A stretch of DNA of 64,000 bases from positions 643 to 64,642 of the forward strand of contig CANPVV010000003.1 of the NCBI GenBank assembly GCA_947581835.1, given 5' to 3'. How positions within the stretch are numbered: position 1 is the first letter of the stretch; every line of letters starts with the position of its first letter. This DNA comes from an uncultured Bacilli bacterium (GTDB lineage: Bacteria > Bacillota_I > Bacilli_A > RF39 > UBA660). Shown in pieces: positions 5,247 through 45,335 of this stretch. The position numbers and the translations under genes were made by a program. The notes beneath the pieces were generated by a model that saw nothing but the letters and a program-made list of their open reading frames with translations, was not told where the DNA came from and did no database searches.

Positions 5247-5247
5247 G

Positions 5248-16636: not shown

Positions 16637-16673
16637 GATTGTAATAAATAAAAAAAGATGGGAAAGATTAAAT

Positions 16674-18041: not shown

Positions 18042-18075
18042 ATATTTTTATTAATATTTAGAAAGAGAGTGTGTG

Positions 18076-18957: not shown

Positions 18958-18978
18958 TAGAGAAAGGATTTAGTTTTA

Positions 18979-19269: not shown

Positions 19270-19270
19270 A

Positions 19271-22155: not shown

Positions 22156-22182
22156 ATAGAACATTTGTGTTTTATCTTTTTT
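22155..22182 (+). terminator. Rho-independent terminator after gatB
   Basis: 9-bp stem GATAGAACA/TGTTTTATC (one G:U pair), followed by TTTTTT. Confidence 0.5.
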
Positions 22183-22255
22183 AGTGTTATAATATAGTTG
22201 TTTAAATAAACAAAGAGAATTTAGAGGAATATAATATAGAAAGAAGGGTTTAAAA

Positions 22256-23296
22256 GTGGATAGTAAGGTTAAAAATATATTAATTGGAGTTTTATTTATT
22301 TTATTTATGATTAGTTTAGCGGTTATTTATTATTTGGTTAAGGGTAGTAGTAATGAGGTTTTAACAATTAAAGGAAATGTAATTGTTGCGAGTGATGATT
22401 ATGTGATTATTGAGGGAATAAATGAGGATTATGTTATTAATAATATAAAAGGACAGTATAATGTTGGGGATGAAGTAGAATTTAAATATAATAAAAAAGA
22501 TTTAAATAGTAAAGTTAGTCCTAAAACTATTAAAGTTAGTGATGAGGAATTGATAAAAGTTGGGGATAATGATTCAGATGAGGATAGTAATATAGAAGAA
22601 AATAGTAGTTCAGGAAATAATAGTAGTAACAGTAGTAATAGTGGAAATAGTGTTGATAAGACTAATAATGGGGGTACTACTACTAATAATAATGGGAATA
22701 ATTCAGCTAATGAGAAAGATGCAGTAAATAATCAGAGTAGTAGTGGAACTAATAGTGGTAATTTAATTAATAGTGAGAAAGAGAGTAATGGTAATAGTTC
22801 TAATAGTAGTAGTGCAGTAAGTGATGCTGATAGTTTAGTGTTAAGTTATTTTGAAGATTATCAAGCAGATATTAATAGTGAGAACTTAGGTAGTAGTGTT
22901 AAAAGTGGATTTGTTAGTATTGTAGATTTCTTATTTTATAATGGAACTATTAAAGGACATACTTTTGGAGAATTAACAGATAGTGCTAAGTTAAAAGTTT
23001 TAGCGATGGCTTTATATTTTGATGGAAAGATAGAAAAATATTTTCCAGGTTATAAAGAAAGTATTAGTAGTGCAACTAATAAAGTGTATACAAATATAAA
23101 AGAGGAGATAGTAACTACTTATTTAAATGTAGCTTCTAAAGTTTGCACTAGTAATAGTGATGCTTGTGAGAAAGCTAAAAATGGTTTTGCAGAGTTAAAG
23201 AAGAATTTTAGTTTAACTTGGGATTTAATTAAAGATATTGCGGGAGATGGACTTACTAATTTAAAGAATTGGTATGAAATTTGGAGAACAACTTAA
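22256..23296 (+). CDS. Hypothetical membrane-anchored protein with an Asn/Ser-rich linker
   Basis: GTG start and an N-terminal TM segment (ILIGVLFILFMISLAVIYYL). An ~90-aa N/S/G low-complexity region separates it from a C-terminal globular part. No family recognised. Confidence 0.6.
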   Translation: MDSKVKNILIGVLFILFMISLAVIYYLVKGSSNEVLTIKGNVIVASDDYVIIEGINEDYVINNIKGQYNVGDEVEFKYNKKDLNSKVSPKTIKVSDEELIKVGDNDSDEDSNIEENSSSGNNSSNSSNSGNSVDKTNNGGTTTNNNGNNSANEKDAVNNQSSSGTNSGNLINSEKESNGNSSNSSSAVSDADSLVLSYFEDYQADINSENLGSSVKSGFVSIVDFLFYNGTIKGHTFGELTDSAKLKVLAMALYFDGKIEKYFPGYKESISSATNKVYTNIKEEIVTTYLNVASKVCTSNSDACEKAKNGFAELKKNFSLTWDLIKDIAGDGLTNLKNWYEIWRTT

Positions 23297-23304
23297 ATAT
23301 TTGT

Positions 23305-23333
23305 TTGACAAATGATAATCTTTATGATAATAT
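23305..23333 (+). promoter_or_regulatory. Promoter of the antitoxin-repeat / toxN transcript
   Basis: TTGACA (23305-23310), 17 nt, then TGATAATAT (extended -10, TAATAT at 23328-23333). Confidence 0.5.
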
Positions 23334-23359
23334 TTAGATATGCAAGAAATTGCAGATAA

Positions 23360-23475
23360 AAAAGCGGTGATTCCCACCATAAGAGGAACTTAATAAAAGC
23401 GGTGATTCCTACCATTAAAAGGAACTTAATAAAAGCGGTGATTCCCTACCATAAAAGGGACTTAAAAAAGTGATT
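23360..23475 (+). ncRNA. Type III antitoxin RNA (ToxI/antiQ-like): three full repeats plus a partial one
   Basis: Direct repeats at 23360-23394 (35 nt), 23395-23430 (36 nt) and 23431-23466 (36 nt). Consensus AAAAGCGGTGATTCCnACCATnAAAGGnACTTAAT, with a truncated fourth copy (AAAGTGATT). The GGTGATT...ACC core resembles ToxI. The array lies immediately upstream of a ToxN/AbiQ homolog. Confidence 0.78.
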
Positions 23476-23499
23476 AGAGAGCTTACTCTAATCTTTTTT
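23472..23499 (+). terminator. Rho-independent terminator between antitoxin repeats and toxin gene
   Basis: Perfect 8-bp stem GATTAGAG (23472-23479)/CTCTAATC (23486-23493) with a 6-nt loop, followed by TTTTTT (23494-23499). Confidence 0.7.
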
Positions 23500-23500
23500 C

Positions 23501-23529
23501 TTGACAATAAGTTATGGTAATGATATACT
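23501..23529 (+). promoter_or_regulatory. Candidate second promoter directly upstream of toxN
   Basis: TTGACA (23501-23506), 17 nt, then TGATATACT (extended -10, TATACT at 23524-23529). Confidence 0.4.
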
Positions 23530-23555
23530 CACTTTAGTAAAGGAAGTGGTATATT

Positions 23556-24056
23556 TTGAAACATTTTATATTGGTGCAAGTAGATTATATGTACTGCAAT
23601 TATTTAAGAAAATTTGATAGTAAAGTTTGTTATAATTTTGGCTTTAAAAGAATTAGACCTTTTGTAGGAGTTTTATTTGAGGTTAATAATATTTTATATT
23701 TTGCTCCTTTATCTAGTCCTAAAGAAAAGCATTTAAAAATGAAAAATACTATTGATTTTATAAAGATTGATAATGGAAAGTTAGGAGCTATTAATTTTAA
23801 TAATATGATACCAGTTATTGAAGGGTGTTACGAAATAATTGATTTAAATAATAAAAATAATGAGAAATACGCTCATATGCTTAATATGCAATTGTTTTGG
23901 CTTAATAGAAATTATGATAGAATTAAATATAAAGCTAAAACTTTGTATAATAAATATATAAATAATACTTTAGATAAAAGAATTAAAAATAGATGCTGTA
24001 ACTTTCCTTTATTAGAAGAAAAATGTTTAGATTATCATGTAAAAATAAAAGTGTAA
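23556..24056 (+). CDS. Type III toxin-antitoxin system endoribonuclease toxin, ToxN/AbiQ family
   Basis: 166 aa with a TTG start after AAAGGAAGTGG. It aligns by eye with Pectobacterium ToxN: YL.KFD.KV; F.G.....(Y)FAPLSSPK.KH versus YLAPLTSPKKWH; G.INFNNMIPVIE versus GLINLKFMIPIIE; CNFPLLEEK versus CNFSLLEEK. Confidence 0.9.
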   Translation: MKHFILVQVDYMYCNYLRKFDSKVCYNFGFKRIRPFVGVLFEVNNILYFAPLSSPKEKHLKMKNTIDFIKIDNGKLGAINFNNMIPVIEGCYEIIDLNNKNNEKYAHMLNMQLFWLNRNYDRIKYKAKTLYNKYINNTLDKRIKNRCCNFPLLEEKCLDYHVKIKV

Positions 24057-24072
24057 AATAAAGAAAATTTAG

Positions 24073-24102
24073 TTGAATAATTTTTGAAATATATGATATA
24101 AT
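24073..24102 (+). promoter_or_regulatory. Promoter of the putative 6S RNA
   Basis: TTGAAT (24073-24078), 18 nt, then TGATATAAT (extended -10, TATAAT at 24097-24102). This places the TSS near 24109-24111. Confidence 0.45.
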
Positions 24103-24109
24103 AATAGTA

Positions 24110-24285
24110 CCTAAAGGTTATAGTCTATTTTACATAAAACCGACTATGAGATAATATTGGGGGAATAATTACATATGGAGTTGAATGCTGGTCTTGATTT
24201 GCCAGAATCCAGAAGTATGTATGTTTCTTACCACCTGCGAGTGCGCGGGCTTTTATCGACAGATAGACTTCTCCTTTGGGTTTTT
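24110..24285 (+). ncRNA. ssrS: Probable 6S RNA (SsrS/BsrA-like), ~176 nt
   Basis: Non-coding and GC-enriched. The 5' end pairs with the 3' end to close a rod: CCTAAAGG (24111-24118) with CCTTTGGG (24273-24280), AGTCTAT with ATAGACT, and ATAAAA with TTTTAT. There is an internal helix (TACATAT/GTATGTA), an apical hairpin (CTGG..CCAG), and an unpaired central region with a small 3'-side hairpin (CCTGCG/GCGCGG). It ends in TTTTT. It lies upstream of tcdA. Confidence 0.55.
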
Positions 24286-24314
24286 ATTTGCTATAATTTA
24301 GGGTGGTGGTAATT

Positions 24315-24998
24315 ATGTTTGAAAGATTAATTAAATTGATAGATGAAGAAGATTTAAAAAAAATTAGAGAAGCTAATATTCTTTTAGTAGGAGTTGGAGG
24401 AGTAGGGGGTTTTGTTTTAGAGTGTTTAGGAAGGTCTGGATTTAGTAATTTAACTATTGTTGATGGGGATAAAATAGATATATCTAATTTAAATAGACAG
24501 ATTATTACTAAATTAGATAATGTAGGAAAAAGAAAAGTAGAGGAAGCTCTAAATAGATTATTAGAAATAAATTGTAATATAGATGCTAAAATAATTGATA
24601 TATACTTAACGAAAGAGAATTTTAGAGAGTATATAAATCAAAGGTATGATTATATAATTGATGCTTGTGATGATATTAAAGTTAAAGTAGAATTGATTAG
24701 ATATGCACAAGAAAATAATATTAAAATTATTACTTGTTTAGGAACAGGAAGAAAATTGAAACCAGAATTGTTAGAAATAACTAAATTAAATAAAACTTTT
24801 AATGATCCTTTGGCGAAGAAGTTGAGATATGAATTAAGAAAAGAAAATTTAAGTTTGAATACGTTAGTTTTATTTAGTAAAGAAGAGGCAATAAAAACTG
24901 AAGGAGAGATTGGGAGTGCTATATTTGTTCCCGCTGTGGCGGGGATTATGCTTGCTAATTATGTGTTTTTAGATTTAATTAAAAAGGATGATGCTTAG
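24315..24998 (+). CDS. tcdA: tRNA threonylcarbamoyladenosine dehydratase (ThiF/MoeB-fold, TcdA/YrvM-like)
   Basis: Rossmann motif LLVGVGGVGGFVLECLGRSG..LTIVDGD.IDISNLNRQ. ATG 24315 with a GGTGGTGG RBS is preferred over GTG 24303. Confidence 0.85.
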   Translation: MFERLIKLIDEEDLKKIREANILLVGVGGVGGFVLECLGRSGFSNLTIVDGDKIDISNLNRQIITKLDNVGKRKVEEALNRLLEINCNIDAKIIDIYLTKENFREYINQRYDYIIDACDDIKVKVELIRYAQENNIKIITCLGTGRKLKPELLEITKLNKTFNDPLAKKLRYELRKENLSLNTLVLFSKEEAIKTEGEIGSAIFVPAVAGIMLANYVFLDLIKKDDA

Positions 24999-25465
24999 AT
25001 AGTATCATTTTTTAAATATTTGGGTTTATCAATTCGACCAAGTAAATAATCAGTACTAATATGGTATTTTTTACTTATAGAATATAGATAATTAGTTGAA
25101 ATAATATTTACTCCTCGTTCATAGGAGGATATAGTAGAAAAAGTAGTGTTTAAAAAGTTAGATAAATCGGTTTGAGTTAGTTTAAATTCTTTGCGAAGTT
25201 CTTTTAATCTTTTACCCATAAGAGTTTTATTTGTTTCTTTTTTTATAGTTTCATATTGTTCAATATTGGTAAATTCAAAGATATAATCTAAAGAAACATT
25301 GTAATAGTTACATAAAGTTATTAAATGTTTAATGGGAATAGTAACTTTTTCAGTTTCATAATTGCAATATTGACTTTTTACTATCTCTAAAAGGTTTGCT
25401 ATATCTTGTTGTTTTTTTATATTTTTTTCTCTAAGAAATCTTAGTCTTCTATACATATATTTCAC
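24995..25465 (-). CDS. XRE-family transcriptional regulator with two tandem HTH domains
   Basis: 156 aa with two Cro/C1-type HTH units (LREKNIKKQQDIANLLEIVKSQYCNYE and LRKEFKLTQTDLSNFLNTTFSTISSYERG). Confidence 0.8.
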   Translation of the reverse strand: MKYMYRRLRFLREKNIKKQQDIANLLEIVKSQYCNYETEKVTIPIKHLITLCNYYNVSLDYIFEFTNIEQYETIKKETNKTLMGKRLKELRKEFKLTQTDLSNFLNTTFSTISSYERGVNIISTNYLYSISKKYHISTDYLLGRIDKPKYLKNDTI

Positions 25466-25619
25466 TCCAAGTTTATTGTCTCATGATAATTATTTTTAAC
25501 TTTTATAGTTGGTAAATAATGTGATTTATATCAGTTTTTAATATATCATAGATTATAGTTTATTTAAAGGAAAAATAAATATATTAAAAATTGTAATATT
25601 TAATTTAAAAAAAGATTTG

Positions 25620-26594
25620 TTAGTCTTTATTAAGTAAAAATTCTGGTAATATTTCAGGGTTTTTATTATTTAAAGCAATATCATAGATTATATTTATTAT
25701 GGGCATTTTTATTTTACGATTTTTAGTTAGTTCTTTAAATGATTTTAAAGTATAATAACCTTCAGTAGTATTATTATTTAAATAATCTTCTAATTCTTGT
25801 TTAGATGCCTTTTTTCCTAATAGAATACCATAACTATAATTACGACTTTTAGGGGATGAGGCTGTTAAGATTAAATCACCAATTCCTGCGAAAGAAAGAA
25901 TAGTTTTAGGGTTACATTCTAATTTTTCTAATAATTCTTTAATATCATGGAGTGATTCAGTTAAAAGAAATGCTCGGGTAGATTCTGAATAACCTAAACC
26001 ATCTAATATACCACTAGCGATCGCAATAACATTTTTAATACTACCACATATTTGAGTTCCATATAAATCTTTATTTACTCTTAATTTAACATAGTTAGTT
26101 TTTAGAGCTTTAGTTGTAGTAAGGGATGCTTTTTTAGTATTAGCTGCTAGTGATAAGGCACATGGAGTTTTATTTAATATATCAATTGCAAAAGTTGGGC
26201 CTGATATAATGGAAATATGTTTAGATTTTAAGGTTTCTTTAACTATATCAGATAGAAAAGAGCAGGTGTTATTTTCAATTCCTTTAGAGGCAATACAAAT
26301 AGGTATATCTTTATTTAAATAAGGAGCCATATTTTTACAGGTAGATCGAAAATACTTAGCACTGGTTGCTAAAATAACTAAATTAGAACTATTTAAAGCA
26401 AGTTCAAGATTATTGGTAACATTTATATTATCTGGAATTAAAATATCAGATATGGGCTTTAAATTGTGATTTTTGGCAAAACTTTCAGCGAGAGTAGGAT
26501 TTTCAGTCCACATTATTACTTCATGATTGTTAGAAGCACAAAGGGTAGCAATAGCTAAACCATAAATTCCAGTACCAATTATACTTATTTTCAT
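25620..26594 (-). CDS. gpsA: NAD(P)H-dependent glycerol-3-phosphate dehydrogenase
   Basis: 324 aa with the N-terminal dinucleotide fold MKISIIGTGIYGLA and motifs SKGIE, GPTFA, KNVIAIASG, GIGDLILT. Confidence 0.92.
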   Translation of the reverse strand: MKISIIGTGIYGLAIATLCASNNHEVIMWTENPTLAESFAKNHNLKPISDILIPDNINVTNNLELALNSSNLVILATSAKYFRSTCKNMAPYLNKDIPICIASKGIENNTCSFLSDIVKETLKSKHISIISGPTFAIDILNKTPCALSLAANTKKASLTTTKALKTNYVKLRVNKDLYGTQICGSIKNVIAIASGILDGLGYSESTRAFLLTESLHDIKELLEKLECNPKTILSFAGIGDLILTASSPKSRNYSYGILLGKKASKQELEDYLNNNTTEGYYTLKSFKELTKNRKIKMPIINIIYDIALNNKNPEILPEFLLNKD

Positions 26595-27790
26595 TTAACA
26601 TTCCTCATTTCGTCATATAATTTATTTAAATTCATTTCATATTTGTTATCTTTTTTATGATAGTAGTGGCGGTTTTTTAAGTTTTTAGGCATATATTCTT
26701 GAGGGTAATAATCATTTTTATAATTATGAGGATAAATATAATCAGGTGAGGGATTTATTAGATGACGAGGTATTTCACCAGCAAGGCCTTTATTAATATC
26801 ATTTACAGCTTCATTAATGGCTAGATATGCACTGTTGGATTTAGGAGAAAGAGCCATTTCAGTTACAACTGTACCTAAAGGGATAATTGCTTCTGGTAAA
26901 CCTACTAATTCGGCAGCATCGATGGCAGCTTTTACTTTAGGACCCATACCAGGATTAGCAAGACCAATATCTTCATAGCAAATAACACTCATACGTCTAT
27001 AAATACTATCTAAATCACCGGCGACTAAAAGTCTTGCTAAATAATGAAGAGATGCATCTACATCACTACCCCGAATAGATTTTTGAAAAGCACTTAAAAC
27101 TTGATAATGGCCATCTTCATCTTTATCATGAAAAAAGACAGCTTTATTATTAATTTTTTTGATTTCTTCAATGGTAATTTCATGATTGGTAGTTGAATAA
27201 TAGCTAACCTCTAAAGTATTTAGAGCACTACGAAAATCTCCCCCGCTTAAAGTAGCAATATATTTTAGAGTTTCATCATCAATTTTTATATCAGGTAAAG
27301 AATTTAGGGCTTTTTTTAAACCAATTGTGATATCATCAACTGTTAGTTCTTTTAATTCAAAGATTTGACAACGAGAACGAATGGCCGGATTTATTTTATG
27401 ATAAGGATTAGAAGTGGTTAGACCAATTAAAATAATTAGACCTGATTCAATATGAGGAAGTAAGATATCTTGTTTATCTTTATTCATCCGATGAATTTCA
27501 TCAATTACTAAAATCATTTCACCATACATTTTGGCTTCTTCAATGGCAATATCAAAATCGGCTTTATTATTGGTGGTAGCATTTAAAAATTTAGAGTGCA
27601 TATTAAGTTCACTAACTAAAGCACTAGCAATACTAGTTTTACCAATACCTGGACGACCATATAAAATCATAGAAAATATTTTGTTATTTTTAACTAGATT
27701 AGTTAAGACTTTGTTTTCTCCAATAAGATGAGTTTGACCTATTATATCAGATAGTTTTTTAGGTCTTAAAGTGTTTGCTAAAAGTTCCAT
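26591..27790 (-). CDS. rarA: Replication-associated recombination protein A (RarA/MgsA AAA+ ATPase)
   Basis: Walker A GRPGIGKTS, Walker B VIDEIHR, and C-terminal MgsA motifs (HYQVLSAFQKSIRGSDVDASLHYLARL). Confidence 0.93.
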   Translation of the reverse strand: MELLANTLRPKKLSDIIGQTHLIGENKVLTNLVKNNKIFSMILYGRPGIGKTSIASALVSELNMHSKFLNATTNNKADFDIAIEEAKMYGEMILVIDEIHRMNKDKQDILLPHIESGLIILIGLTTSNPYHKINPAIRSRCQIFELKELTVDDITIGLKKALNSLPDIKIDDETLKYIATLSGGDFRSALNTLEVSYYSTTNHEITIEEIKKINNKAVFFHDKDEDGHYQVLSAFQKSIRGSDVDASLHYLARLLVAGDLDSIYRRMSVICYEDIGLANPGMGPKVKAAIDAAELVGLPEAIIPLGTVVTEMALSPKSNSAYLAINEAVNDINKGLAGEIPRHLINPSPDYIYPHNYKNDYYPQEYMPKNLKNRHYYHKKDNKYEMNLNKLYDEMRNVK

Positions 27791-27889
27791 ATTATTACCT
27801 CACTATATAGATTATATCATAAATTAGTACTTTATTAATAGTAATTTAGAGTTTTTAATGATATAATTGTTTATAGGAGAATGTAAGTA

Positions 27890-28168
27890 ATGGAATTATT
27901 GATAGGAATTTTATTGTTATTAATGCCGATTGTAGTGGTAGTTTTATTTAATAAGTATCGAGTATTTATAAATATATTAAAGATAGTAATGGTAGGAATA
28001 TGTATTTATATTTATATAAGATATAAAAATTCTTTAGCTCTTTTAGTTTGGTTATTTATGGGAATTTGGTTTTTACTTTTGGTGGTAGTAACAGATTATT
28101 TTGTAAGAGAACATAAAGAAAAAAAGAAGGATAGTAATGGAAAAGAAAACAGAAGAAGAAATATATAA
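27890..28168 (+). CDS. Small hypothetical membrane protein (92 aa)
   Basis: Three predicted hydrophobic segments and a basic C-terminal tail. Overlaps the xerD start by 32 nt. Confidence 0.5.
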   Translation: MELLIGILLLLMPIVVVVLFNKYRVFINILKIVMVGICIYIYIRYKNSLALLVWLFMGIWFLLLVVVTDYFVREHKEKKKDSNGKENRRRNI

Positions 28169-29057
28169 AATTAATCCAGAACTTAAAACGTATATTCAGG
28201 AGTATTTACTTACAGAATATAGTAGTTCAAAGAATAGTCGAGATTCTTATCGATATGATTTAATTAATTATGCAAGATTTTATGATACTAATATTGTTTA
28301 TTTAAAAAAAGAAGATATTCAGGAATATTTAAGAAAGAGTAAGAAAAAAGCGAAATCTAAAGCTCATAATTTAACAAGTATTAATAATTTTTATAAGTAT
28401 TTAATAGATAAAAACACTATTAAGATTAATCCTTGTGAAAGTATTAAAATGCCGAAATTAGAGAAGAAATTACCGGTTTATTTAACAGAGGAAGAAGTTA
28501 ATAAATTGTTAAATATGAGGGCTAGTAATGCTTATGAATTAAGAGATAAAGCTATGTTAGAGGTATTATATGCAACAGGTATTAGAATTAGTGAGTTATG
28601 TAATTTAGTAATGAGTAATTTATATTTAGATGATAGTATGATTAAAGTTATGGGAAAAGGTGGAAAAGAAAGAATTGTTCCAATTTATGAGGAAGCTAAA
28701 AATAGTTTAATTAATTATTTAACGTATGGAAGAGAAAGTATTTTAAAATCTAAGGATAGTGAATATGTTTTTATTAGTAGTAGACAAACAAAGATTTCAA
28801 GACAGGCATTTTTTAAGTTTTTAAAAAAATTATGTCAAAAAAATGGAATTAAAAAAAATGTTAGTCCCCATATACTTAGACATTCTTTTGCTACTCATTT
28901 AATTAATCATGGGGCTGATTTAAGAGTAGTACAAGAAATGCTCGGACATAGTGATATTGCAACTACTCAGATATATACACATTTAACTCATGAAAAGTTA
29001 GAAACAGATTATAATAAGCATCCTTTAATTAAAGGTAAAAAAGAAGAAACCAATTAA
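28137..29057 (+). CDS. xerD: Tyrosine site-specific recombinase, XerD type
   Basis: 306 aa. The catalytic region [38 protein letters not shown] closely resembles E. coli XerD ([36 protein letters not shown]) rather than XerC. Confidence 0.88.
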   Translation: [306 protein letters not shown]

Positions 29058-29075
29058 TCCTTGGTTTCTCTTTTA
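29046..29075. terminator. Bidirectional Rho-independent terminator
   Basis: Stem GAAACCAA (29046-29053)/TTGGTTTC (29061-29068), flanked by T-runs on both strands. It sits between xerD (+) and the small Arg/Ser-rich ORF (-). Confidence 0.6.
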
Positions 29076-29084
29076 TTTAGTTAA

Positions 29085-29276
29085 TTAACGACTTTCTCTA
29101 TTACTTCTTGAGCAGTTATTTTCGTTTCTTGAACTTCTTGAACTTCTTGAACTTTCATTATTTCTAGATTCATTTCTAGAATTTCTTGAACTTTCATTTC
29201 TTGAGTTTCTTGAACTTTCTTGTCTAGAACTTCTTGAATTATTGTTTTGACTTTTCATTTTTCTTTTCCCTCCCAT
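29085..29276 (-). CDS. Small Arg/Ser/Asn/Glu-rich repetitive protein (57-63 aa)
   Basis: The ORF encodes reiterated SRNSRNES-like units. The internal ATG at 29258 has a GGGAGGG RBS and is the likelier start. A terminator lies downstream. No family recognised. Confidence 0.45.
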   Translation of the reverse strand: MGGKRKMKSQNNNSRSSRQESSRNSRNESSRNSRNESRNNESSRSSRSSRNENNCSRSNRESR

Positions 29277-29329
29277 TATTATTATGGCAAGATTATGAGG
29301 GTTAATTCATAAAATTTAGGGGTGATAGT

Positions 29330-30082
29330 ATGGAAATATTTGGTGCTTTATTAGTATCAACTTTGGCAGGACTTTCCACAGTTGGGGGAGGGTTAATTGT
29401 ATTATTTAGAGTAAAGGAAGAGAAAATTAATAAGTTTATTACAGCAAGTTTGGCGTTTAGTTTGGCGATAATGATTGGAATTAGTATTACAGATTTGATA
29501 CCAGAGTCTTCTTATAATTTATTGGTAAGTTATGGAATAGGTAGGGGAGTAGTAGTTGCTTTAGGAGCTTTTTTAAGTGGAGTAGTATTAACTAAATACT
29601 TGCATAAATTAATTAATAAACAAGAGGTAAAAGGAGATTTATATAAGCTTGGAATACTTAATTTGATTGCTTTAGTTTGTCATAATTTTCCAGAAGGAAT
29701 TGCAACTTTTATGAGTTCTTATAAAGATATTAATTTAGGAATAAAACTTGCGATAGCTATAGCACTGCATAATATACCAGAAGGAATAAGTATTGCTGTT
29801 CCAATTTATTATGCTACAAATTCAAGAAAAGAGGCTATATTTAAGACTTTTTTATCAGGTATTGCTGAACCTATTGGGGCTATTATTGCGTATATATTTT
29901 TAAGTAAATATATTACAGATAGGATAATAAGTTTAATTCTTTTATTGGTGGGGGGAATAATGATTTGTTTAGCAATTGAAATAATTTATCCGAAAGCTTT
30001 AAGTTATAAGGAAAATAGTTGGTTAAAGATTGGTTTAGGTTTAGGTGTTTTATTGATTGTTATAAATGCTTTGGTTTTTTAA
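29330..30082 (+). CDS. zupT: ZIP-family zinc transporter ZupT
   Basis: 250 aa, ~8 TM segments, with paired metal motifs HNFPEGIA and HNIPEGISIA. Confidence 0.9.
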   Translation: MEIFGALLVSTLAGLSTVGGGLIVLFRVKEEKINKFITASLAFSLAIMIGISITDLIPESSYNLLVSYGIGRGVVVALGAFLSGVVLTKYLHKLINKQEVKGDLYKLGILNLIALVCHNFPEGIATFMSSYKDINLGIKLAIAIALHNIPEGISIAVPIYYATNSRKEAIFKTFLSGIAEPIGAIIAYIFLSKYITDRIISLILLLVGGIMICLAIEIIYPKALSYKENSWLKIGLGLGVLLIVINALVF

Positions 30083-30161
30083 TTAAGCTTAGATTAGTGC
30101 TTTGAAATAAAGAGATATCTTTATTTAGTTGGTTTGTTTAGATTTAAATTTTTCAGAGTTT

Positions 30162-30189
30162 AGTTAACATAACGTACATTTTGCGAAAT
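30162..30189. other. Candidate dif site (XerC/XerD chromosome-dimer resolution site)
   Basis: The minus strand reads ATTTCGCAAAA-TGTACG-TTATGTTAACT. The right arm matches the E. coli XerD arm TTATGTTAAAT and the B. subtilis arm TTATGTAAACT at 10/11 each. The left arm matches each at 7/11. It lies in a 440-bp gap between convergent genes, at the gene-strand switch and near xerD. Confidence 0.6.
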
Positions 30190-30352
30190 ATAATTTTGAA
30201 AGAAAAATATTAAAGATTTAGTTGTTTTTTGATATTTAGTTGATATAAATTATGCTTAGTTTTTAATTAGATTTTAGGTATTAAATTAAGTTTAAGTTAA
30301 AAATTTAATAATTTGAATTTAGAATATTTTAAGTTTTAAAATTTAGTTATTT

Positions 30353-30427
30353 TATAACCTTATTTATATATTTAATAAGGTTATAATACGCGTGTATATC
30401 ATTATTATATTTAATAATAAGGTTATA
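30353..30427. repeat. Perfect 12-bp inverted repeat plus a direct copy of one arm
   Basis: TATAACCTTATT (30353-30364) and AATAAGGTTATA (30374-30385) are separated by 9 nt. AATAAGGTTATA recurs at 30416-30427 with the same TATATTTAAT lead-in. A near-palindrome ATACGCGTGTAT lies between the copies. Confidence 0.6.
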
Positions 30428-30496
30428 TAAGTATATATATTAAATTAAAGGGGAGTTTTAATAATAAATTTCTTTTAAGAAGGGGGGTTAAATTTT

Positions 30497-30519
30497 AAAA
30501 AAAGAGGGGTTGTTCCCCT
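30497..30519 (-). terminator. Rho-independent terminator of the 30522-32131 operon
   Basis: The minus strand reads AGGGG-AACAA-CCCCT, followed by CTTTTTTT. Confidence 0.65.
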
Positions 30520-30521
30520 AT

Positions 30522-31340
30522 TTATTTGCGTTCACTTTTTAGATAGTAGTGACCACCAGTTTTGCTTTCCTTAAATGTATGTTTGTATAAAGCTCCATAG
30601 TCTCTTACAAATTCAATTTGTTTTTCTTCACTTAACTGAGAGAAATCACCGATCTCTTTTAGTTTAGAAGTACATTTACTACTCTCCTCTTCACTGGTAG
30701 TTGTTAGGTAACATTTGTTATCGGATATTTTTAAGAAATAATCACTTATAACAATATCTCCATTGTTTTTGATTATTGCTTTAGTTTTTAAACGATAAAT
30801 ATCAGCTTCAGGCATAATTGCTACATTGTAGGAAGTTGCCTCACCACAGTAGTACTTCTCCCCTTCTTTGGTACACATTTTTTTACTGGTAATGTAAAAT
30901 GATTCTTCATCACTAGTCTCAGGTTTAGTTCCATAAAGTTCTTCATAAGCTTTATCTAAAGAGTTTGCATCTAATTCTTCATAACTGCAAACTTCAGAAT
31001 CATCGGCAGTAGCAAAGGTTAGTTCATTTAATTTACAATATTTGGTGTCATATTCATTGGTACCTGTAACTTTAAGGGTATTAGAAGTGATATTATCTTG
31101 ATTTAGATTATAATATGCCATACAAAGTTTATTTTCAGCTTCAATATCACTAGCACTGATAGAGTCCTTACTATAAGCATTTAAACCACCACAGTGATAG
31201 ATATCTACTTCTCCTAAATAACTGTATAATTTAGTTATTTCTTCACTATTGATATCAAGAGGTTTATCACTGATAACGATGGTTGCAATACCAATTAAAA
31301 CAATAATAATTAAAATTATAAATAGATACTTCTTTTTCAT
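30522..31340 (-). CDS. Hypothetical secreted/membrane-anchored Cys-rich protein (272 aa)
   Basis: N-terminal signal/anchor (KKYLFIILIIIVLIGIATIV) and about 10 cysteines in the mature part. No family recognised. Confidence 0.6.
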   Translation of the reverse strand: MKKKYLFIILIIIVLIGIATIVISDKPLDINSEEITKLYSYLGEVDIYHCGGLNAYSKDSISASDIEAENKLCMAYYNLNQDNITSNTLKVTGTNEYDTKYCKLNELTFATADDSEVCSYEELDANSLDKAYEELYGTKPETSDEESFYITSKKMCTKEGEKYYCGEATSYNVAIMPEADIYRLKTKAIIKNNGDIVISDYFLKISDNKCYLTTTSEEESSKCTSKLKEIGDFSQLSEEKQIEFVRDYGALYKHTFKESKTGGHYYLKSERK

Positions 31341-31354
31341 AAAAATTACACTTT

Positions 31355-32131
31355 CTAGACTTTGCGAGACTGAATTTCGGCAATTTTTTCAAATACTTCG
31401 GCAGCATTTTGTTCATTTATTTGATTATAGCCGAGTTCGCGAAGGGCTTGGATTTTAATAGTATTTAATTGTTGGGTACGGCTAAGTTTTTCTTCATTTT
31501 TTTGCTCAATTTCTTGGACAAAACGCTTATGACTTTCTTCTAATTTACTTTTACTTGCGCCCCCATTGTTATATAAAGTTAAAGCAGAATATAAGATTCC
31601 TTCAAAGATAAATTGATGCTCTTCATCAAAGGCATATTCCTCAGGATTAATAAAACCAGTAGTTTTAGACATATAACCAAGTATATATTTGATTTCAGGA
31701 ACATTATCGATTGATTGTAACATATGATATAAATAATTTATCGCGTGTTTGTTTTCTTCTTTTTTGTTTTCATCTAATAATTTTTCTTTAAGTAAATATG
31801 TGATATCAGCAATTAAAGTTTGTTCTTCTTTATTTAAGCCTTTCATATCAAAGTAGTTATCCATATCACTAGAATTTTTAACACCTTGATTTAAGCGATT
31901 CTCAACAGCCATTAGATAATCGGTAGTAATTTTAATACTACTTATTGTGTTTTCATCACCATCTTCGATATCTAATAATTTTAGTAATAATATCTTTTTT
32001 TCTTTAGGCCATTTATTAATGTCTTCAAGTTCTAAATAGTTATAAACCATTTGCCTAGAGACATTTAAATATTTAGCAAGTCTAACTTTGGATATTCCTA
32101 GTTCTTGTAATAATTCATTTAAACTATTCAT
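31355..32131 (-). CDS. HTH-domain protein (258 aa)
   Basis: N-terminal HTH (LQELGISKVRLAKYLNVSRQMVYNYLE). The rest is unassignable. It lies upstream of, and on the same strand as, the Cys-rich protein gene. Confidence 0.65.
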   Translation of the reverse strand: MNSLNELLQELGISKVRLAKYLNVSRQMVYNYLELEDINKWPKEKKILLLKLLDIEDGDENTISSIKITTDYLMAVENRLNQGVKNSSDMDNYFDMKGLNKEEQTLIADITYLLKEKLLDENKKEENKHAINYLYHMLQSIDNVPEIKYILGYMSKTTGFINPEEYAFDEEHQFIFEGILYSALTLYNNGGASKSKLEESHKRFVQEIEQKNEEKLSRTQQLNTIKIQALRELGYNQINEQNAAEVFEKIAEIQSRKV

Positions 32132-32174
32132 TCTTTTTTATGTTTCCTTTCTTATTTTTTTAATTTACATTAAT

Positions 32175-32204
32175 ATTATAAGGTACTTAACACTTTAATG
32201 TCAA
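32175..32204 (-). promoter_or_regulatory. Candidate sigma-A promoter for the HTH/Cys-rich protein operon
   Basis: Minus strand: TTGACA (32204-32199), 18 nt, then TATAAT (32180-32175). Confidence 0.4.
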
Positions 32205-32227
32205 GTAGCTATGTTAAATTATTGCTA

Positions 32228-32259
32228 AAAATAAAAAGACTTAACTTTTTGGTTAAGTC
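32228..32259 (-). terminator. Rho-independent terminator after mnmA
   Basis: Stem GACTTAAC (32238-32245)/GTTAAGTC (32252-32259). On the minus strand it is followed by TTTTTATTTTT. Confidence 0.6.
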
Positions 32260-32266
32260 CCCTTCC

Positions 32267-33367
32267 CTATAAATACCAGAGTTTTTCACCATTTTTATAG
32301 ACATCTTTGATAAAACCACAGCCTAAACATTTATCATGGTCATAAAAGACACATGCTTGGCCAGGAGTTACACTTTTAGCAAGAGTTGGATATTTAATTT
32401 TGATTGAATCTTCAGTTATCTCTTCAACAATTATAGGTATTTCTTCACCACGATAACGAAATTTTGCGGTAAGTTTAAGTGGTAAGTCTTCCATTAAATT
32501 AATATTATCTAAGGTGCAAGCATCACTATAAAGGTATGAACTATCGCCGTAGGCAACATATAAAATATTTTTAGAAACGTCTTTACCACAGACATAGTGT
32601 CTTAATTCATCGCCACTTAAACCTACATTTCGTCTTTGACCGATGGTATAATTCATAAGACCAGTGTGTTTACCTATTACTTTGTCAGTAGAAACGTCAA
32701 TAATATCGCCAGGATTAGGTTTTAGATAGTTTTTAACAAATTCTTGAAAATGACGTTCCCCAATAAAACAGATACCAGTTGAATCTTTTTTAGTGGCAAC
32801 ATTAAGATTGGCTTTTAGGGCAATATCACGAACTTGAGGTTTAGTTAAATCACCAAGAGGAAAAATAACATTTTCTAATTGTTCCTTTTTGATATCGGCT
32901 AAAAAGTAGGTTTGATCTTTATTTTGATCTAAAGCTTTATATAAAGTATTATTTTTAACTCGAGCATAATGACCAGTGGCAATATAATCAGCGCCTAATT
33001 TTAAAGCTTCTTTTTTAAATAAATCAAATTTTATATATTTATTGCATAACATATCGGGATTAGGAGTTCGACCTTTTTTTAATTCTTCTAAAAAGTAGGT
33101 AAAAACATTGTCCCAATATTCTTTAATAAAATCAACACGATGGAGTTTAATTCCTAGTATTTCACAGGTTTTTAGGGCATCATTGTAATCAGTTTCTTGA
33201 GGACATATTTCTTGATTAAAATTAGGATTACCAAGGGTATCATTGTTTAGCATAGAATCCCAGTTGCGCATAAATAGCCCTTCTACTTCATAGCCTTGTT
33301 CTTTTAGAAGTAAAGCTGCGACAGCAGAATCTACTCCTCCACTTATACCGACAATAACTTTTTTCAT
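32267..33367 (-). CDS. mnmA: tRNA 2-thiouridine(34) synthase MnmA
   Basis: PP-loop VGISGGVDSAV plus motifs GRTPNPDMLCNKYIKF and DQTYFL. Confidence 0.95.
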   Translation of the reverse strand: MKKVIVGISGGVDSAVAALLLKEQGYEVEGLFMRNWDSMLNNDTLGNPNFNQEICPQETDYNDALKTCEILGIKLHRVDFIKEYWDNVFTYFLEELKKGRTPNPDMLCNKYIKFDLFKKEALKLGADYIATGHYARVKNNTLYKALDQNKDQTYFLADIKKEQLENVIFPLGDLTKPQVRDIALKANLNVATKKDSTGICFIGERHFQEFVKNYLKPNPGDIIDVSTDKVIGKHTGLMNYTIGQRRNVGLSGDELRHYVCGKDVSKNILYVAYGDSSYLYSDACTLDNINLMEDLPLKLTAKFRYRGEEIPIIVEEITEDSIKIKYPTLAKSVTPGQACVFYDHDKCLGCGFIKDVYKNGEKLWYL

Positions 33368-33506
33368 AACGCATCACAAGTTTATTATAACACGGATGAT
33401 GAGCTTTAGCAAATTTATTATATTTGTTATTAGAGATTGTTATATTTATTATAATTATAGATTATGAAGATTACATTTTGTTATTTAACTTATTTTATAT
33501 TAGAGA

Positions 33507-34076
33507 TTAGTTAAAGGGAAGAAAAAAAGAAAGAATATTGGTGCCAAAGAAATAGAGGAATAAATCATAGATAAATAATGCAAAAAGAAGAAAGATAGTA
33601 ATTTTAAGATTTTTTTTCAAAGATAGATGAGTTTTATTTAGAATATTGGTAAATATTATTTGGGTTAAAGAAGATATTTGGTGAATTAAAAGAAAAATTA
33701 GAGATAGATAGAAGAATTTGGTTAAAAAGATATAGAATAAAGAGTAGATAAAACCTTTAAAGTAGTAGATAGCGGTAAAACTTAGAATATTATAGAAAAT
33801 ACAGATAGCCTCAAAACAGAAATAGATGGGAAAACTTAGAAAATTGAGATTAAAAAGAGCAAAAAAGCTTAGAATTAGAATAATAATTAGATGGGGTAAG
33901 AAAAAGTTTAGGTGGGTTGTATTTAAAAGTTCAGGGATATTTTTTAAATTATTTAGAAGAAGAGTGTTATCAAGTTTTTTAAAAAGAAGAAAGCTTATAA
34001 TAAAACTTAGAAGACTTAAATAGATAAGTAATTTACGAGTTTTAGAGTCTTTTAGCTTTATTTTTAAATAATTCAT
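33507..34076 (-). CDS. Hypothetical polytopic membrane protein
   Basis: About 5 TM segments. ATG 34076 with a GGTGA RBS is preferred over TTG 34103. The weak overall resemblance to SpoIIM-type proteins is not convincing. Confidence 0.55.
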   Translation of the reverse strand: MNYLKIKLKDSKTRKLLIYLSLLSFIISFLLFKKLDNTLLLNNLKNIPELLNTTHLNFFLPHLIIILILSFFALFNLNFLSFPIYFCFEAICIFYNILSFTAIYYFKGFIYSLFYIFLTKFFYLSLIFLLIHQISSLTQIIFTNILNKTHLSLKKNLKITIFLLFALFIYDLFLYFFGTNILSFFLPFN

Positions 34077-34160
34077 GATATTCACCAGTAAATTATATTG
34101 CAAATTTTACGAAAATATGATAAATTAATAAAGGAAATTTAAAAAGAAATGGTGATTTAG

Positions 34161-34256
34161 ATGAGTAAAAAAGCACAAAAAGTATTTGCTTGGGGTATGC
34201 TTATTGCGATGGTGGCTAGTGTTGTAGCAACTATTGTTTCGTATGCTTTAGCATAA
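34161..34256 (+). CDS. Small single-TM peptide (31 aa), below the ORF-track cutoff
   Basis: ATG 34161 after GGTGA. The peptide is MSKKAQKVFAWGMLIAMVASVVATIVSYALA, a basic N-terminus followed by one TM segment. A hairpin with a T-run follows. Confidence 0.4.
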   Translation: MSKKAQKVFAWGMLIAMVASVVATIVSYALA

Positions 34257-34261
34257 AAAAA

Positions 34262-34334
34262 GTAGTTCTGAATGGTATTTGTTATAAAAGAATAATTATT
34301 TGTTTTAAGGAGTGTAGGTGTCATTCAGAACTAC
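34262..34334. terminator. Long-range 13-bp inverted repeat, likely a bidirectional terminator or hairpin RNA
   Basis: GTAGTTCTGAATG (34262-34274) pairs with CATTCAGAACTAC (34322-34334) across a 47-nt loop. An A7 run lies on the left and GCTTTTTATTTT on the right, so a U-tract follows on both strands. Confidence 0.5.
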
Positions 34335-34379
34335 GCTTTTTATTTTATAAAATAATAGTTAAATGGTCAAGAAATTTCG

Positions 34380-34396
34380 TTCGACAAAATTCGACA
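34380..34396 (-). promoter_or_regulatory. Two tandem perfect Spo0A-box-like heptamers (TGTCGAA)
   Basis: Plus-strand TTCGACA at 34380-34386 and 34390-34396 (10-nt spacing) reads TGTCGAA on the minus strand. They lie 9 nt upstream of a minus-strand TTGACC (34370-34365), 17 nt, TAAAAT (34347-34342) promoter. Confidence 0.35.
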
Positions 34397-35425
34397 TTAG
34401 GAATTTAGAGCTTCTGTTATTAGTTTATCTAAAAGATTGGAGTAAGAAATATTTTTTTCAGCAAATAATTTAGGATACATACTAGTTTTAGTAAACCCAG
34501 GAATAGTATTTATTTCATTTAGATAAATTTCATCACCGATTAGAAAGAAATCACAGCGACTATAACCATGACATTCGAGAATTTGGAATATTTTAAGGGC
34601 AGTATTTTGGATTTTAGTGGTTAAATTTGGGGATAGAGAAGCGGGAATAATGGTGTTATTGTCTTTACTTTGATATTTAGCAAAAAAGTCATAGAAAGAA
34701 GAGTTTACCTCACCAATGGGGGATGCGATAAGTTGATGGTTAGTTTCTAATATAGCACATTCAAGTTCACGACCAGAAGAAGCTGCTTCAACAAGTAAGC
34801 GATTATCAATATTAAAAACTAAAGGTATTTTAGATTCTAATTCTTCATAATTAGAAATTTTAAAAACACCAAGGGAAGAACCACTGTTGGAAGGTTTAAT
34901 ATAGAAAGGATAGTTAAAATTAGAAATAATAGTTGTAAGCATTTCTTTTTTAGTTAGACTTTTATCTTCATAGATATATTCATTATTGTATTTAGTAAAA
35001 TAGATAAAAGGCATAGTTTTAATATTATTATGTTCTAAGATGATTTTGGTTAGAATTTTATCCATAGTAACTAAACTAGGACGGGGTTTATTACTAAGAT
35101 ATTTTATATTTAGAAATTCAAAAATACTTGCTAGAAGACCATCTTCACCGTTTTTGCCATGAATAGCAATCCAGACTAAATCAAATTGTTTAAGATAGGT
35201 GAAAGGCTCTTTAATGGGGGTTAAATTGGTGGGTAACTCCCCTACTTCTAAGCTGGTAATTTCTTCAACGGGTTTATTCCAAAGATAAAATAAGTTGGTT
35301 TTATCTAAATAAATGGGTGTTATTGTATATTTTCTTTTATCTAAGTTACTTATAATTGAAGTAGCTGATGCGATAGATACTTCATGTTCATTTGATGAAC
35401 TACCAAATAAAATGGCGATTTTCAT
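34397..35425 (-). CDS. ddl: D-alanine--D-alanine ligase
   Basis: 342 aa ATP-grasp protein with Ddl motifs (FGSSSNEHEVS, HGKNGEDG, EINTIPGFT). Confidence 0.93.
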   Translation of the reverse strand: MKIAILFGSSSNEHEVSIASATSIISNLDKRKYTITPIYLDKTNLFYLWNKPVEEITSLEVGELPTNLTPIKEPFTYLKQFDLVWIAIHGKNGEDGLLASIFEFLNIKYLSNKPRPSLVTMDKILTKIILEHNNIKTMPFIYFTKYNNEYIYEDKSLTKKEMLTTIISNFNYPFYIKPSNSGSSLGVFKISNYEELESKIPLVFNIDNRLLVEAASSGRELECAILETNHQLIASPIGEVNSSFYDFFAKYQSKDNNTIIPASLSPNLTTKIQNTALKIFQILECHGYSRCDFFLIGDEIYLNEINTIPGFTKTSMYPKLFAEKNISYSNLLDKLITEALNS

Positions 35426-35439
35426 TGTTTATTCCTCCT

Positions 35440-36801
35440 TTAAATGATATTTTTAATAATATCAGAAAAACCCATACCGTGACTTGCTTTAATTAAGAAA
35501 ACATCATTTTTCTTTTTAATATTATTTATGTATTTTATGGCTTCTTCATTACTGTTAAAGTGAAAACTGTTGTTTTTATTGAAACCATCTTGAATAGCTA
35601 TTTTATTGATATTAGAGGAAAGATTACCGATAGTTATTAAAAGGTCGAGATTATTTTGATAGATTAAGTGGCCGATATCTTCATGAATTTTAGGTCCATA
35701 TTCACCTAGTTCTAAGATATCTCCTAAGACGGCAATTTTACGGCCTTTAAATGATTTTAATATTTCAAGATTGTAGTAGACAGAATCATAGCTAGCATTG
35801 TAAGAATCATCAATTACTAAATAATTTTCACAAGATATTAGTTCCATGCGGTGAGGCTCCGGTTTTAGTTCTTTTAGTTTTTTTATAACAGATTCATTGT
35901 TTAGGTTAAATAAATCACTGATAATAAATGCCACAAGAGAGTTATATATAAAGTGTTTTCCTAAAATATTTAGAGATACAGCATGGTTTTTATAAGTAAA
36001 ATTGCTTCCTTTTTCGTCATACATAATATTGGTTGCCAGATAGTTACTAGGATTTTCAAGACCAAAGGTAATAATATCGTATTTATCTTTATTCTCTTTT
36101 GCCCATTTATGAAGAAGGTCATTGTCATTATTGATAATTATAGGTCCACTTAGCCCTTCTAAAATTTCTAGTTTTGCTTTTAGGATATTTTCTCTGGAGC
36201 CAAGATAACCAATATGAGCAGTACCAATGTTGGTTATTACAGCATGAGTGGGTTTAGCAATACTGGTTAGAAGACTTATTTCCCCTTTTTGATTCATACC
36301 CATTTCTAAAACAATTATTTCTTCGGTAGTATGAGACAAAATAGTAAGAGACAAGCCAACACTGGTATTTAGGTTGCCTGAGGTTTTTAAAACTTGGTAT
36401 TTGGTACTTAATACTTCGCTGATTATATTTTTAGTACTGGTTTTCCCTACACTTCCGGTTACGGCAATAACAGGAATATTTAGAGTGGCTCTTTTTCTTT
36501 TAGCAAGATTGATTAAATAGGTAGTGGTATTATCTACAATTATAATATTTAGAGGTTTATTTTTTAAAAAGTCGGTATCTAGGGGAATGTTGTTTAAGAT
36601 TAGAGTTTTAGCTCCTTTTTTTATGGCTTCTTTATAAAAAGTGCTGCCATCATAAACTTCACCTTTAATCCCAATGTAAGTATCATTAGGTTTAAGAGTT
36701 CTGGTATCTATAGAAAGATTGGTTAAAAAATCATTTTCATTTCCTTGATAGAGATAAGCATTGTTTAAATTTAAAATATCTTTTATTTGCATTAAAATCA
36801 C
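35440..36801 (-). CDS. murF: UDP-N-acetylmuramoyl-tripeptide--D-alanyl-D-alanine ligase
   Basis: 453 aa Mur ligase with the ATP site VTGSVGKTSTK and DDSYNAS. Adjacent to ddl. Confidence 0.92.
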   Translation of the reverse strand: MILMQIKDILNLNNAYLYQGNENDFLTNLSIDTRTLKPNDTYIGIKGEVYDGSTFYKEAIKKGAKTLILNNIPLDTDFLKNKPLNIIIVDNTTTYLINLAKRKRATLNIPVIAVTGSVGKTSTKNIISEVLSTKYQVLKTSGNLNTSVGLSLTILSHTTEEIIVLEMGMNQKGEISLLTSIAKPTHAVITNIGTAHIGYLGSRENILKAKLEILEGLSGPIIINNDNDLLHKWAKENKDKYDIITFGLENPSNYLATNIMYDEKGSNFTYKNHAVSLNILGKHFIYNSLVAFIISDLFNLNNESVIKKLKELKPEPHRMELISCENYLVIDDSYNASYDSVYYNLEILKSFKGRKIAVLGDILELGEYGPKIHEDIGHLIYQNNLDLLITIGNLSSNINKIAIQDGFNKNNSFHFNSNEEAIKYINNIKKKNDVFLIKASHGMGFSDIIKNII

Positions 36802-36916
36802 CTTTTTTCGTTATAATTATATCATAATAGTTTGTTTTTAGTAGCAATTAAGGCTTTTTTTGTCAGTTTATAGACAAAAATATAGAAAAATGATATAATT
36901 TTTGAGGGTGAAGAAA

Positions 36917-37285
36917 ATGCTTTATAGAGTAGGAATGTTTTGTAAACATTTTAAGGGAACTAATTTATTAGAAAAAAATATTTATCAGATTGAGGCTTTA
37001 GGGCTTAGAGGAAAAGATATAGGTGATAATGTAACTTATGTGGGTGAAGGAAATAAAGATACCGCGGATAATTTAGTGGTGTATGCGAATATTTTTCAGA
37101 ATAATAAGTTATTTGCAAGAGAGTATGAAGATTTGGCTTTTGTATTAGATAGTGATAAACAGATTGAGTATAGACAGAAATATAGAGTTGAACCTTTAAC
37201 AATAGAAGAGATAGAGATTATTAGAGATCCAAATTTTATTTTAGAAAAGAAAAGACTAGTAGAAGAAAAATTTAGAACAAGATAA
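36917..37285 (+). CDS. Hypothetical protein, possibly DUF1653-like
   Basis: ATG 36917 follows a GAGGGTGA RBS. The motif Y....CKHFKG is reminiscent of DUF1653 (Y.H.KG). This is a weak assignment. Confidence 0.45.
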   Translation: MLYRVGMFCKHFKGTNLLEKNIYQIEALGLRGKDIGDNVTYVGEGNKDTADNLVVYANIFQNNKLFAREYEDLAFVLDSDKQIEYRQKYRVEPLTIEEIEIIRDPNFILEKKRLVEEKFRTR

Positions 37286-37308
37286 AAAAGCCTAAGGGCT
37301 TTTTTTTT
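37284..37308. terminator. Bidirectional terminator between the DUF1653-like gene and lon
   Basis: AAAAAAGCC-TAAG-GGCTTTTTTTTT, a stem flanked by A and T runs. Confidence 0.6.
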
Positions 37309-39625: not shown

Positions 39626-39692
39626 ATAAAACAGTTTCTATTATAAATAATAAAGTAGGTTTTGTCTACTAAATTTGGCTAAAAATATAATT

Positions 39693-40715: not shown

Positions 40716-40781
40716 CTACTTTCTTTTATTATTATAGCAAATATTGGATTTTTAATAAAGAGAAATGAGTTATTTCACATA

Positions 40782-41716: not shown

Positions 41717-41755
41717 TTTTACCTCCTTTTTAATAATATTTTTAGATATATTTTT

Positions 41756-43003: not shown

Positions 43004-43070
43004 TTATTTAATTCCTTTCAAAATCTTTAATTAATATAACATAATTTTTAGGTTTTTACAAGTCTAAATA

Positions 43071-43727: not shown

Positions 43728-43736
43728 ATTATCACC

Positions 43737-45281: not shown

Positions 45282-45335
45282 ATAATCACTCTACTTTAGT
45301 TAAATTATAGCATAATTTTTAGTATTATAAAATAA

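Follow-up and report, generated by a model that had tools for sequence, protein, structure and literature searches.

The 28-bp site at 30162-30189, read on the minus strand of the window (the whole stretch of 64,000 nucleotides analyzed here), is a genuine dif site, and its identity is settled as far as sequence analysis allows. The reading that we prefer, with a probability of roughly 0.6, is that this dif marks the boundary of dimer resolution and of gene orientation, and not the place where the replication forks historically met. In the original prediction, two replichores were supposed to meet at this site. The dif site itself and the boundary in gene orientation and dimer resolution are retained from that proposal, whereas a terminus defined by the skew is not. 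The interest of the locus lies in a conflict that extends over the genus, in which the dif site, the gene polarity, and the DnaA boxes with dnaA disagree with a strong skew (GC3 skew of about +0.7 and −0.5). These markers normally coincide, and they are routinely used for placing origins and termini.

Structure of the dif Site

The site has the 11-6-11 architecture of dif on the minus strand, which agrees exactly with the reading proposed for 30162-30189. The XerC-type arm, ATTTCGCAAAA, occupies 30189-30179, the center TGTACG occupies 30178-30173, and the XerD-type arm, TTATGTTAACT, which contains the conserved arm core TTATG, occupies 30172-30162. The proposed arm scores were reproduced, with 7/11 matching positions in the XerC arm and 10/11 in the XerD arm for the dif sites of both E. 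coli and B. subtilis. With the sequence that we take to be the H. influenzae dif, the 28-mer matches at 10/11 positions in each arm.

The site lies in a non-coding gap of 439 bp (30083..30521) between two convergent genes, whose near edges are at 30082 and 30522; the predicted length was 440 bp. The gap also holds the intrinsic terminator of the minus-strand gene (30500-30525), and no DnaA box with one mismatch or fewer was found in it. Direct repeats, ATTTAGTTGKTTT, flank dif at a distance of 27 bp on either side. The two copies, ATTTAGTTGGTTT at 30123-30135 and ATTTAGTTGTTTT at 30216-30228, are placed exactly 27 bp from the ends of dif; since they are not conserved in the relatives, this arrangement is probably due to chance.

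The words just outside the 28-mer, at 30150-30161 and 30190-30200, are partly conserved among the relatives (loci L001-L031). The word CAAAAnnAT adjoins the XerC arm, and a word resembling CTCnGAAAA is located 5-14 bp past the XerD arm. These words could represent accessory contacts.

Uniqueness and Conservation of the Site

The genome assembly has a size of 1.29 Mb in 59 contigs, a completeness of 99%, and a GC content of 27%. In such a genome, the likeness to the dif sites of E. coli and B. subtilis is insufficient as proof, because an arm match of 17/22 is at the chance level. Arm matches of at least 17/22 were found at 6 sites of the genome with the E. coli dif as the query and at 12 sites with the B. 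subtilis dif, and the best arm match in simulated genomes of the same dinucleotide content was 17-19/22.

The 28-mer itself is single in the genome, and no second site within 4 arm mismatches was found in the whole 1.29-Mb assembly, which answers the question of a second copy raised in the original prediction. In 100 shuffles of the window, no match to the site within 3 mismatches was obtained. A degenerate dif pattern gave one copy in each of 10 congeners, where the reversed control gave zero, and the exact pattern, searched across 120 other genera of the family, matched only the genome of the window itself.

With XerD as the query, 45 related loci were obtained from uncultured gut Bacilli, and 31 of these belong to close relatives. 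The 28-mer is kept at the same place and in the same orientation downstream of xerD in about 27 of these 31. When 32 loci were aligned on the site, the information content was 1.72 bits per column in the 28-mer and ~0.6 bits per column in the 40 flanking columns on each side. The uniqueness of the site, the result of the shuffles, and this conserved footprint indicate that the site stands above the level of chance.

Recombinases and Neighboring Genes

The xerD gene at 28137..29057 (+) encodes a tyrosine recombinase of 306 aa with the Pfam Phage_integrase domain and a SAM-like N-terminal domain. The gene ends at 29057 and dif is located downstream of it, which bears out the predicted distance of 1.1 kb. 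The best NCBIfam model for the protein is TIGR02225 (XerD) with a score of 325 bits, just under the cut-off of 329.6, and the subfamily model NF001399 was passed. The genome encodes exactly two tyrosine recombinases (PF00589), which are this XerD-like protein and an XerC-like protein on contig C48. The best NCBIfam model for the latter is XerC with 289 bits, below the equivalog cut-off, and its score against NF001399 is 264 bits, under the cut-off of 279 bits. FtsK, a protein of 760 aa with the FtsK_SpoIIIE domain, is encoded on contig C6. The assignment of the site as the dif of an XerC/XerD pair is thus supported by its uniqueness, its conservation, the recombinase pair, and FtsK.

The linkage of xerD with dif is kept in the relatives, where xerD is located 1-3 kb upstream of dif in most cases and up to about 10 kb upstream in a few. 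The spacing is 5-10 kb in loci L011, L016, L029, L230, and L232. In the relatives with a wide spacing, small extra ORFs resembling DUF2726 are found between the ZIP gene described below and dif, and the assemblies of one species often end in the same interval. The wider spacing may reflect insertions at or beside dif.

Upstream of xerD is rarA/mgsA (26591..27790, −), encoding a recombination-associated AAA+ ATPase with the Pfam domains MgsA_C, AAA_assoc_2, and AAA. The last gene on the + strand before dif encodes a ZIP-family metal transporter (29330..30082, +; PF02535), whose synteny is kept in at least 30 loci. On the right, dif is followed by two genes (30522..32131, −) that encode proteins of 272 aa and 258 aa and are kept beside dif in all the relatives; both proteins fall outside the described families. 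The 272-aa protein, the product of the first gene, has an N-terminal membrane or signal segment and gave no match in Pfam, NCBIfam, or the PDB. The 258-aa protein, encoded at 31355-32131 (−), has an N-terminal XRE-like helix-turn-helix; it gave only a sub-threshold match to HTH_11 in Pfam and no match in NCBIfam or the PDB. Its identity across the genus is 85-96%, which is above the conservation of XerD, and its gene invariably occupies second place on the right of dif. The protein could be a DNA-binding protein associated with the terminus or with dif.

The gene order of rarA (−), xerD (+), ZIP (+), dif, the 272-aa gene (−), the 258-aa helix-turn-helix gene (−), mnmA (−), and ddl (−) is found in essentially all the relatives. 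The location of dif among syntenic core genes indicates that it is not part of a mobile element. Accessory items had been expected to gather near the terminus; the neighbors of dif are instead conserved core genes.

The convergent switch in gene strand at dif, which was correctly described at the outset, is common to all the relatives examined. In the window, the genes are mostly on the + strand at 2.0-25 kb and again at 28-30 kb, and at 30.5-60 kb they are nearly all on the − strand, with a few small genes on the + strand. In the left arm (2051..30082), where + genes predominate, the coding strand is G-rich at the third positions and the genes are co-oriented with the skew. In the right arm (30522..64000), where − genes predominate, the coding strand is C-rich at the third positions and the genes are head-on relative to the skew.

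Skew across the dif Site

The GC3 skew per gene in this genome is bimodal, with values of about +0.75 and −0.55, and this extreme strand bias makes the skew test a sensitive one. To the left of dif, the coding-strand G3:C3 counts were 1093:175 for the 25 genes on the + strand and 57:163 for the 5 genes on the − strand. To the right of dif, the counts were 678:1634 for the 33 genes on the − strand and 115:26 for the 5 genes on the + strand. The p-values for the pooled G3/C3 counts ranged from 1e-13 to 1e-162. The genes on the minority strand match the DNA strand and not their neighbors, which indicates that the bias follows the strand and not the gene.

The + strand is therefore G-rich on both sides of dif, and in the 75-kb contig this holds at the third positions of nearly every gene. 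The GC skew of the intergenic DNA on the + strand has the same sign on the two sides, with +0.25 to the left and +0.135 to the right, and all three codon positions shift together. The raw cumulative G−C curve climbs up to dif and then forms a plateau, with its maximum at 63.4 kb. The flattening at dif is no extremum but a kink, which arises from the turn in gene orientation. The replication terminus had been placed in the window, where a skew extremum near 30.2 kb was the mark to look for; no such extremum is present, the + strand being G-rich on both sides.

The contig was extended into a scaffold of ~153 kb in the order C45-C26-C41-C3-C53-C42-C47-C24, which is supported by synteny with two reference congeners. 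On this scaffold, the sign of the skew is uniform leftward of dif over 68 kb and rightward over at least 85 kb, and weaker synteny support carries the uniform sign through contigs C37, C12, and C7 to about 170 kb. A skew shift would thus be at least 3.5% of the genome away from dif judging by the single contig, and at least 6.6% away judging by the scaffold.

The polar words of 7-8 nucleotides, examined for KOPS/SRS-like words that would converge on dif, gave no separable signal, as all the strong ones follow either the GC3 skew or the coding strand (purine richness). For example, AGAGAGA is found on the G3-rich strand in 141/141 genic occurrences, with a ratio of 104:0 in the co-oriented genes and 0:37 in the head-on genes; this polarity is accounted for by the GC3 skew and the codon structure, and it illustrates the extreme degree of the strand bias. 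A homolog of the RTP-type fork trap is not encoded in the genome.

Skew in the Genome and at dnaA

Over the whole genome, about 58% of the coding bases are co-oriented with the skew and about 42% are head-on, in blocks of tens of kb. The strong leading-strand gene bias that had been assumed is not borne out by a co-oriented fraction of about 58%. A switch in the sign of the skew was found within none of the 59 contigs.

At dnaA, which is located outside the window, rpmH-rnpA diverges from dnaA-dnaN-comK-recF-gyrB-gyrA (C2:13376-22153). The third positions of the latter block are C-rich, with a skew of −0.37 to −0.61. The region upstream of dnaA (C2:12961-13284, also outside the window) contains the strongest DnaA-box cluster of the genome, and the strongest cluster lies upstream of dnaA in three genomes. 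The genes thus diverge at dnaA while the skew runs through, which means that the dnaA-gyrA block is head-on. A skew switch at dnaA is absent from this genome, from six congeners (in one of which the absence extends over at least 148 kb), and from a HiFi contig of a further relative, in which the skew was read over 22 kb around dnaA. The S10 ribosomal operon and rpmH-rnpA-yidC are co-oriented with the skew, and this supports the sign convention in which the leading strand is G-rich.

To the right of the dnaA region, a block of 47 kb (C2:40000-87000) is inverted relative to three congeners and is co-oriented here. The skew of this inverted block is partly re-equilibrated (+0.36).

Skew States in the Genus

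Three states of the dif locus were found among the relatives, in which the + strand is G-rich on both sides of dif, is C-rich on both sides, or changes sign at dif. The skew state was scored for 24 tips of a phylogeny calculated from XerD, RarA, and the helix-turn-helix protein. The state that is G-rich through dif is the commonest in the genus (17/24), the state that is C-rich on both sides is confined to one clade, and the flip at dif is found at a single tip, genome G166.

In G166, which has a canonical appearance, 83% of the genes are co-oriented and the sign of the skew flips exactly at dif. The replication-linked skew of this genome is weak, with +0.24 for the majority genes and −0.07 for the minority genes. 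This weak component means that G166 can serve only as a soft positive control, and its use as a clean positive control was set aside. The congener G164, which is nearly complete (20 contigs, 1.44 Mb), is about half head-on and has no clean skew switch. Candidate switches on contigs C4 and C7 of G164 were rejected, as they lie in accessory or prophage-like DNA that has near-zero skew and lacks orthologs. Large inversions spanning dif separate the three genomes that were compared.

The half-difference in GC3 skew linked to replication is ~0.6 in the present genome, 0.2-0.5 in G164, and 0.16 in G166. This range of about four-fold within the genus suggests that mutation or repair has changed in a lineage-specific way.

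The depth of coverage given by the assembler in the contig names was compared between the contig to the right of dnaA and the contig with dif in two congeners, that is, in one sample each of other species. The values were 7.57 and 7.05 (1.07x) in one congener and 14.34 and ~13.0 (~1.10x) in the other. These ratios fit either a canonical gradient from the origin to dif or an origin shifted by under a quarter of the circle.

Bacilli usually have their rRNA operons clustered near the origin. Contig C1 of G164 (231 kb) continues unbroken from dnaA for 82 kb in one direction and 148 kb in the other, so that there is probably no rRNA operon within these distances. The assembly of the window itself is without any 16S gene.

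Models of Chromosome Replication

In the preferred reading, XerC and XerD would bind the two arms of dif and, together with FtsK, resolve chromosome dimers at division. The direction of the forks and the position of the origin are matters that we infer from the skew pattern observed. If the G-rich strand is taken as the leading strand, the fork coming from the xerD side would historically have crossed dif and copied the far arm head-on. The forks would then converge on the right-hand side of dif, at a distance of at least 45 kb and probably of 85-170 kb or more, and the origin in actual use would lie about as far away from dnaA. The absence of RTP and the inversions spanning dif would suit a meeting point of the forks that moves freely.

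A displaced origin must be set against the landmarks in the sequence, which are canonical, with the DnaA boxes at dnaA and the genes diverging at dnaA and converging at dif. In addition, no alternative switch of the origin or terminus type was found in the 59 contigs of this genome or the 20 contigs of G164, so that both the displaced origin and the displaced terminus would have to be hidden in assembly gaps. A gene-strand bias of ~90% persists across the genus in the arm that is supposedly head-on, and such persistence would hardly be expected if the arm had long been replicated head-on.

A further step, which we put forward only tentatively, is that the dnaA-parS-dif axis, which organizes gene orientation and chromosome resolution, has become decoupled from the replication program that the mutations record, and that this state has been stable while the genus, one of small-genome gut Bacilli, diversified. 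If this decoupling is true, the forks cross dif, and 40-48% of the chromosome, including dnaA-dnaN-gyrBA, is replicated head-on. The large-scale gene polarity would then be maintained by the segregation axis (parS/SMC, FtsK/SpoIIIE, and dif) and not by the direction of the forks.

The locus could also be a canonical terminus, where replication starts at dnaA, the forks meet at or near dif, and the uniform bias originates in some other strand-specific process. Several features of the genome layout speak for this model: the DnaA-box cluster is located only upstream of dnaA, the rpmH-rnpA / dnaA-dnaN layout is present, gene orientation is divergent at dnaA and convergent at dif in all the genomes that were examined, and dif is conserved. 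The higher coverage of the contigs to the right of dnaA in the two congeners points in the same direction; however, the excess is slight (1.07 and ~1.10), was seen in two samples, both from other species, and would also suit a moderately displaced origin. A bias that follows the DNA strand across codon positions and intergenic DNA is the classic signature of replication, and the bias observed here is present in third positions, in intergenic DNA, and in all codon positions, with the minority genes following the strand. Moreover, we know of no mechanism by which one physical strand would be G-rich around both replichores under bidirectional replication. On balance, a canonical terminus appears unlikely.

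If replication were effectively unidirectional from oriC at dnaA, the fork on the rnpA side alone would be productive, and it would cross dif and end on the dnaA-gyrA side. This would be in line with the absence of a switch at dnaA, at dif, and throughout the contigs of the two genomes that are nearly complete, with a head-on fraction of 42-48%, which is about one replichore, and with the sole oriC-like DnaA-box cluster at dnaA. The 47-kb inversion on the right-hand side of dnaA, by which this genome differs from three congeners and which made the block co-oriented, also agrees with such a mode. However, DNA on this side of dnaA is then predicted to be copied last and to have a lower depth than dif, whereas the two congeners show a depth 7-10% higher. 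To our knowledge, no main bacterial chromosome has been established as unidirectional. The model is regarded as quite improbable.

That the 28-mer is no chromosomal dif but a chance dif-like word, or a site at which a mobile element (of the IMEX or plasmid type) attaches or is resolved beside an integrase, appears barely credible: the chance-level similarity of 17/22 first quoted, the xerD-dif spacing of ~1 to 10 kb, and the small extra ORFs near dif in some relatives would allow it, but about 27/31 relatives keep the site, its orientation, and its core-gene flanks with a sharp footprint, each genome has one copy, both tyrosine recombinases of the genome are of the Xer type, and there is no second flanking site such as an integrated IMEX would leave.

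The conflict between the two sets of markers has consequences that depend on what the skew reports. If the skew reports the direction of the forks, a group of gut bacteria tolerates the head-on replication of nearly half its genes, and this tolerance, if true, bears on the question of why genes co-orient with replication. If the skew does not report the forks, there is an unrecognized source of chromosome-wide strand bias. In either case, the calling of origins and termini from the skew needs checking in this group, and so do those metagenomic estimates of growth rate in which dnaA is taken as the peak and dif as the trough.

Comparison with Known Systems

The dif of B. subtilis, which is used by CodV/RipX (XerC/XerD) with SpoIIIE/FtsK, is likewise a single-copy 28-bp site of the 11-6-11 type. 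The XerD arm found here, TTATGTnAACT, matches its counterpart at 10/11 positions, two paralogous tyrosine recombinases and a protein of the FtsK family are present, and the host lineage is a relative of spore-forming Bacilli. The present system differs in that the left arm matches at only 7/11 positions, no gene for the RTP fork trap is present, and the site is located off the skew shift. The left arm is closer to what we take to be the H. influenzae type, TTCGCA, with 10/11 matching positions.

The dif-XerCD-FtsK systems of E. coli and H. influenzae, which are guided by KOPS, have the same architecture, an FtsK, and a site located between convergent arms. The number of arm positions matching the H. 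influenzae dif, as we presume its sequence to be, is 20/22. In contrast to E. coli, in which xerD and dif are not linked, the two are linked here. All the strongly polar words here track the GC3 skew or the coding strand, and a convergence of KOPS-like words on dif did not stand out from these. A recombinase gene beside its own site throughout a group is also known from xerS/difSL of streptococci and xerH/difH of epsilon-proteobacteria. These systems, however, consist of a single recombinase and atypical sites, whereas a classical 28-bp site is found here together with XerC and XerD.

Modest offsets between dif and the skew shift, as well as unbalanced replichores, are already known. In the survey of Kono et al. 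(2011), dif was located at a distance of 0-1.39% of the genome from the GC-skew shift, with outliers at up to 3%, and was described as near, but not necessarily at, the shift, with termination not strictly at dif (PMC3025954). In the present genome, by contrast, the contig shows no shift within 3.5% of dif, the scaffold shows none within about 6.6%, and none is present at dnaA either.

The chromids of Pseudoalteromonas are secondary replicons derived from plasmids, and their unidirectional replication was confirmed by coverage (Xie et al. 2021, PMC7858055). They likewise have one strand that is G-rich throughout the replicon, without a switch in its middle. The present case concerns a main chromosome instead, and the coverage values from the congeners, though limited, argue against a purely unidirectional mode. 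In the published lists of replicons with odd skew (PMC7111523 Table S7 and PMC7858055 Table S1), no main Firmicute chromosome of this kind is found, and the Firmicutes entries in Table S1 of PMC7858055 are records labeled as large Listeria plasmids, not main chromosomes.

By every sequence-level criterion, the site described here is an ordinary member of the XerC/D-dif family of systems, and the dif site alone would be a routine annotation. It departs from the known members only in its position, in that it does not adjoin the skew shift.
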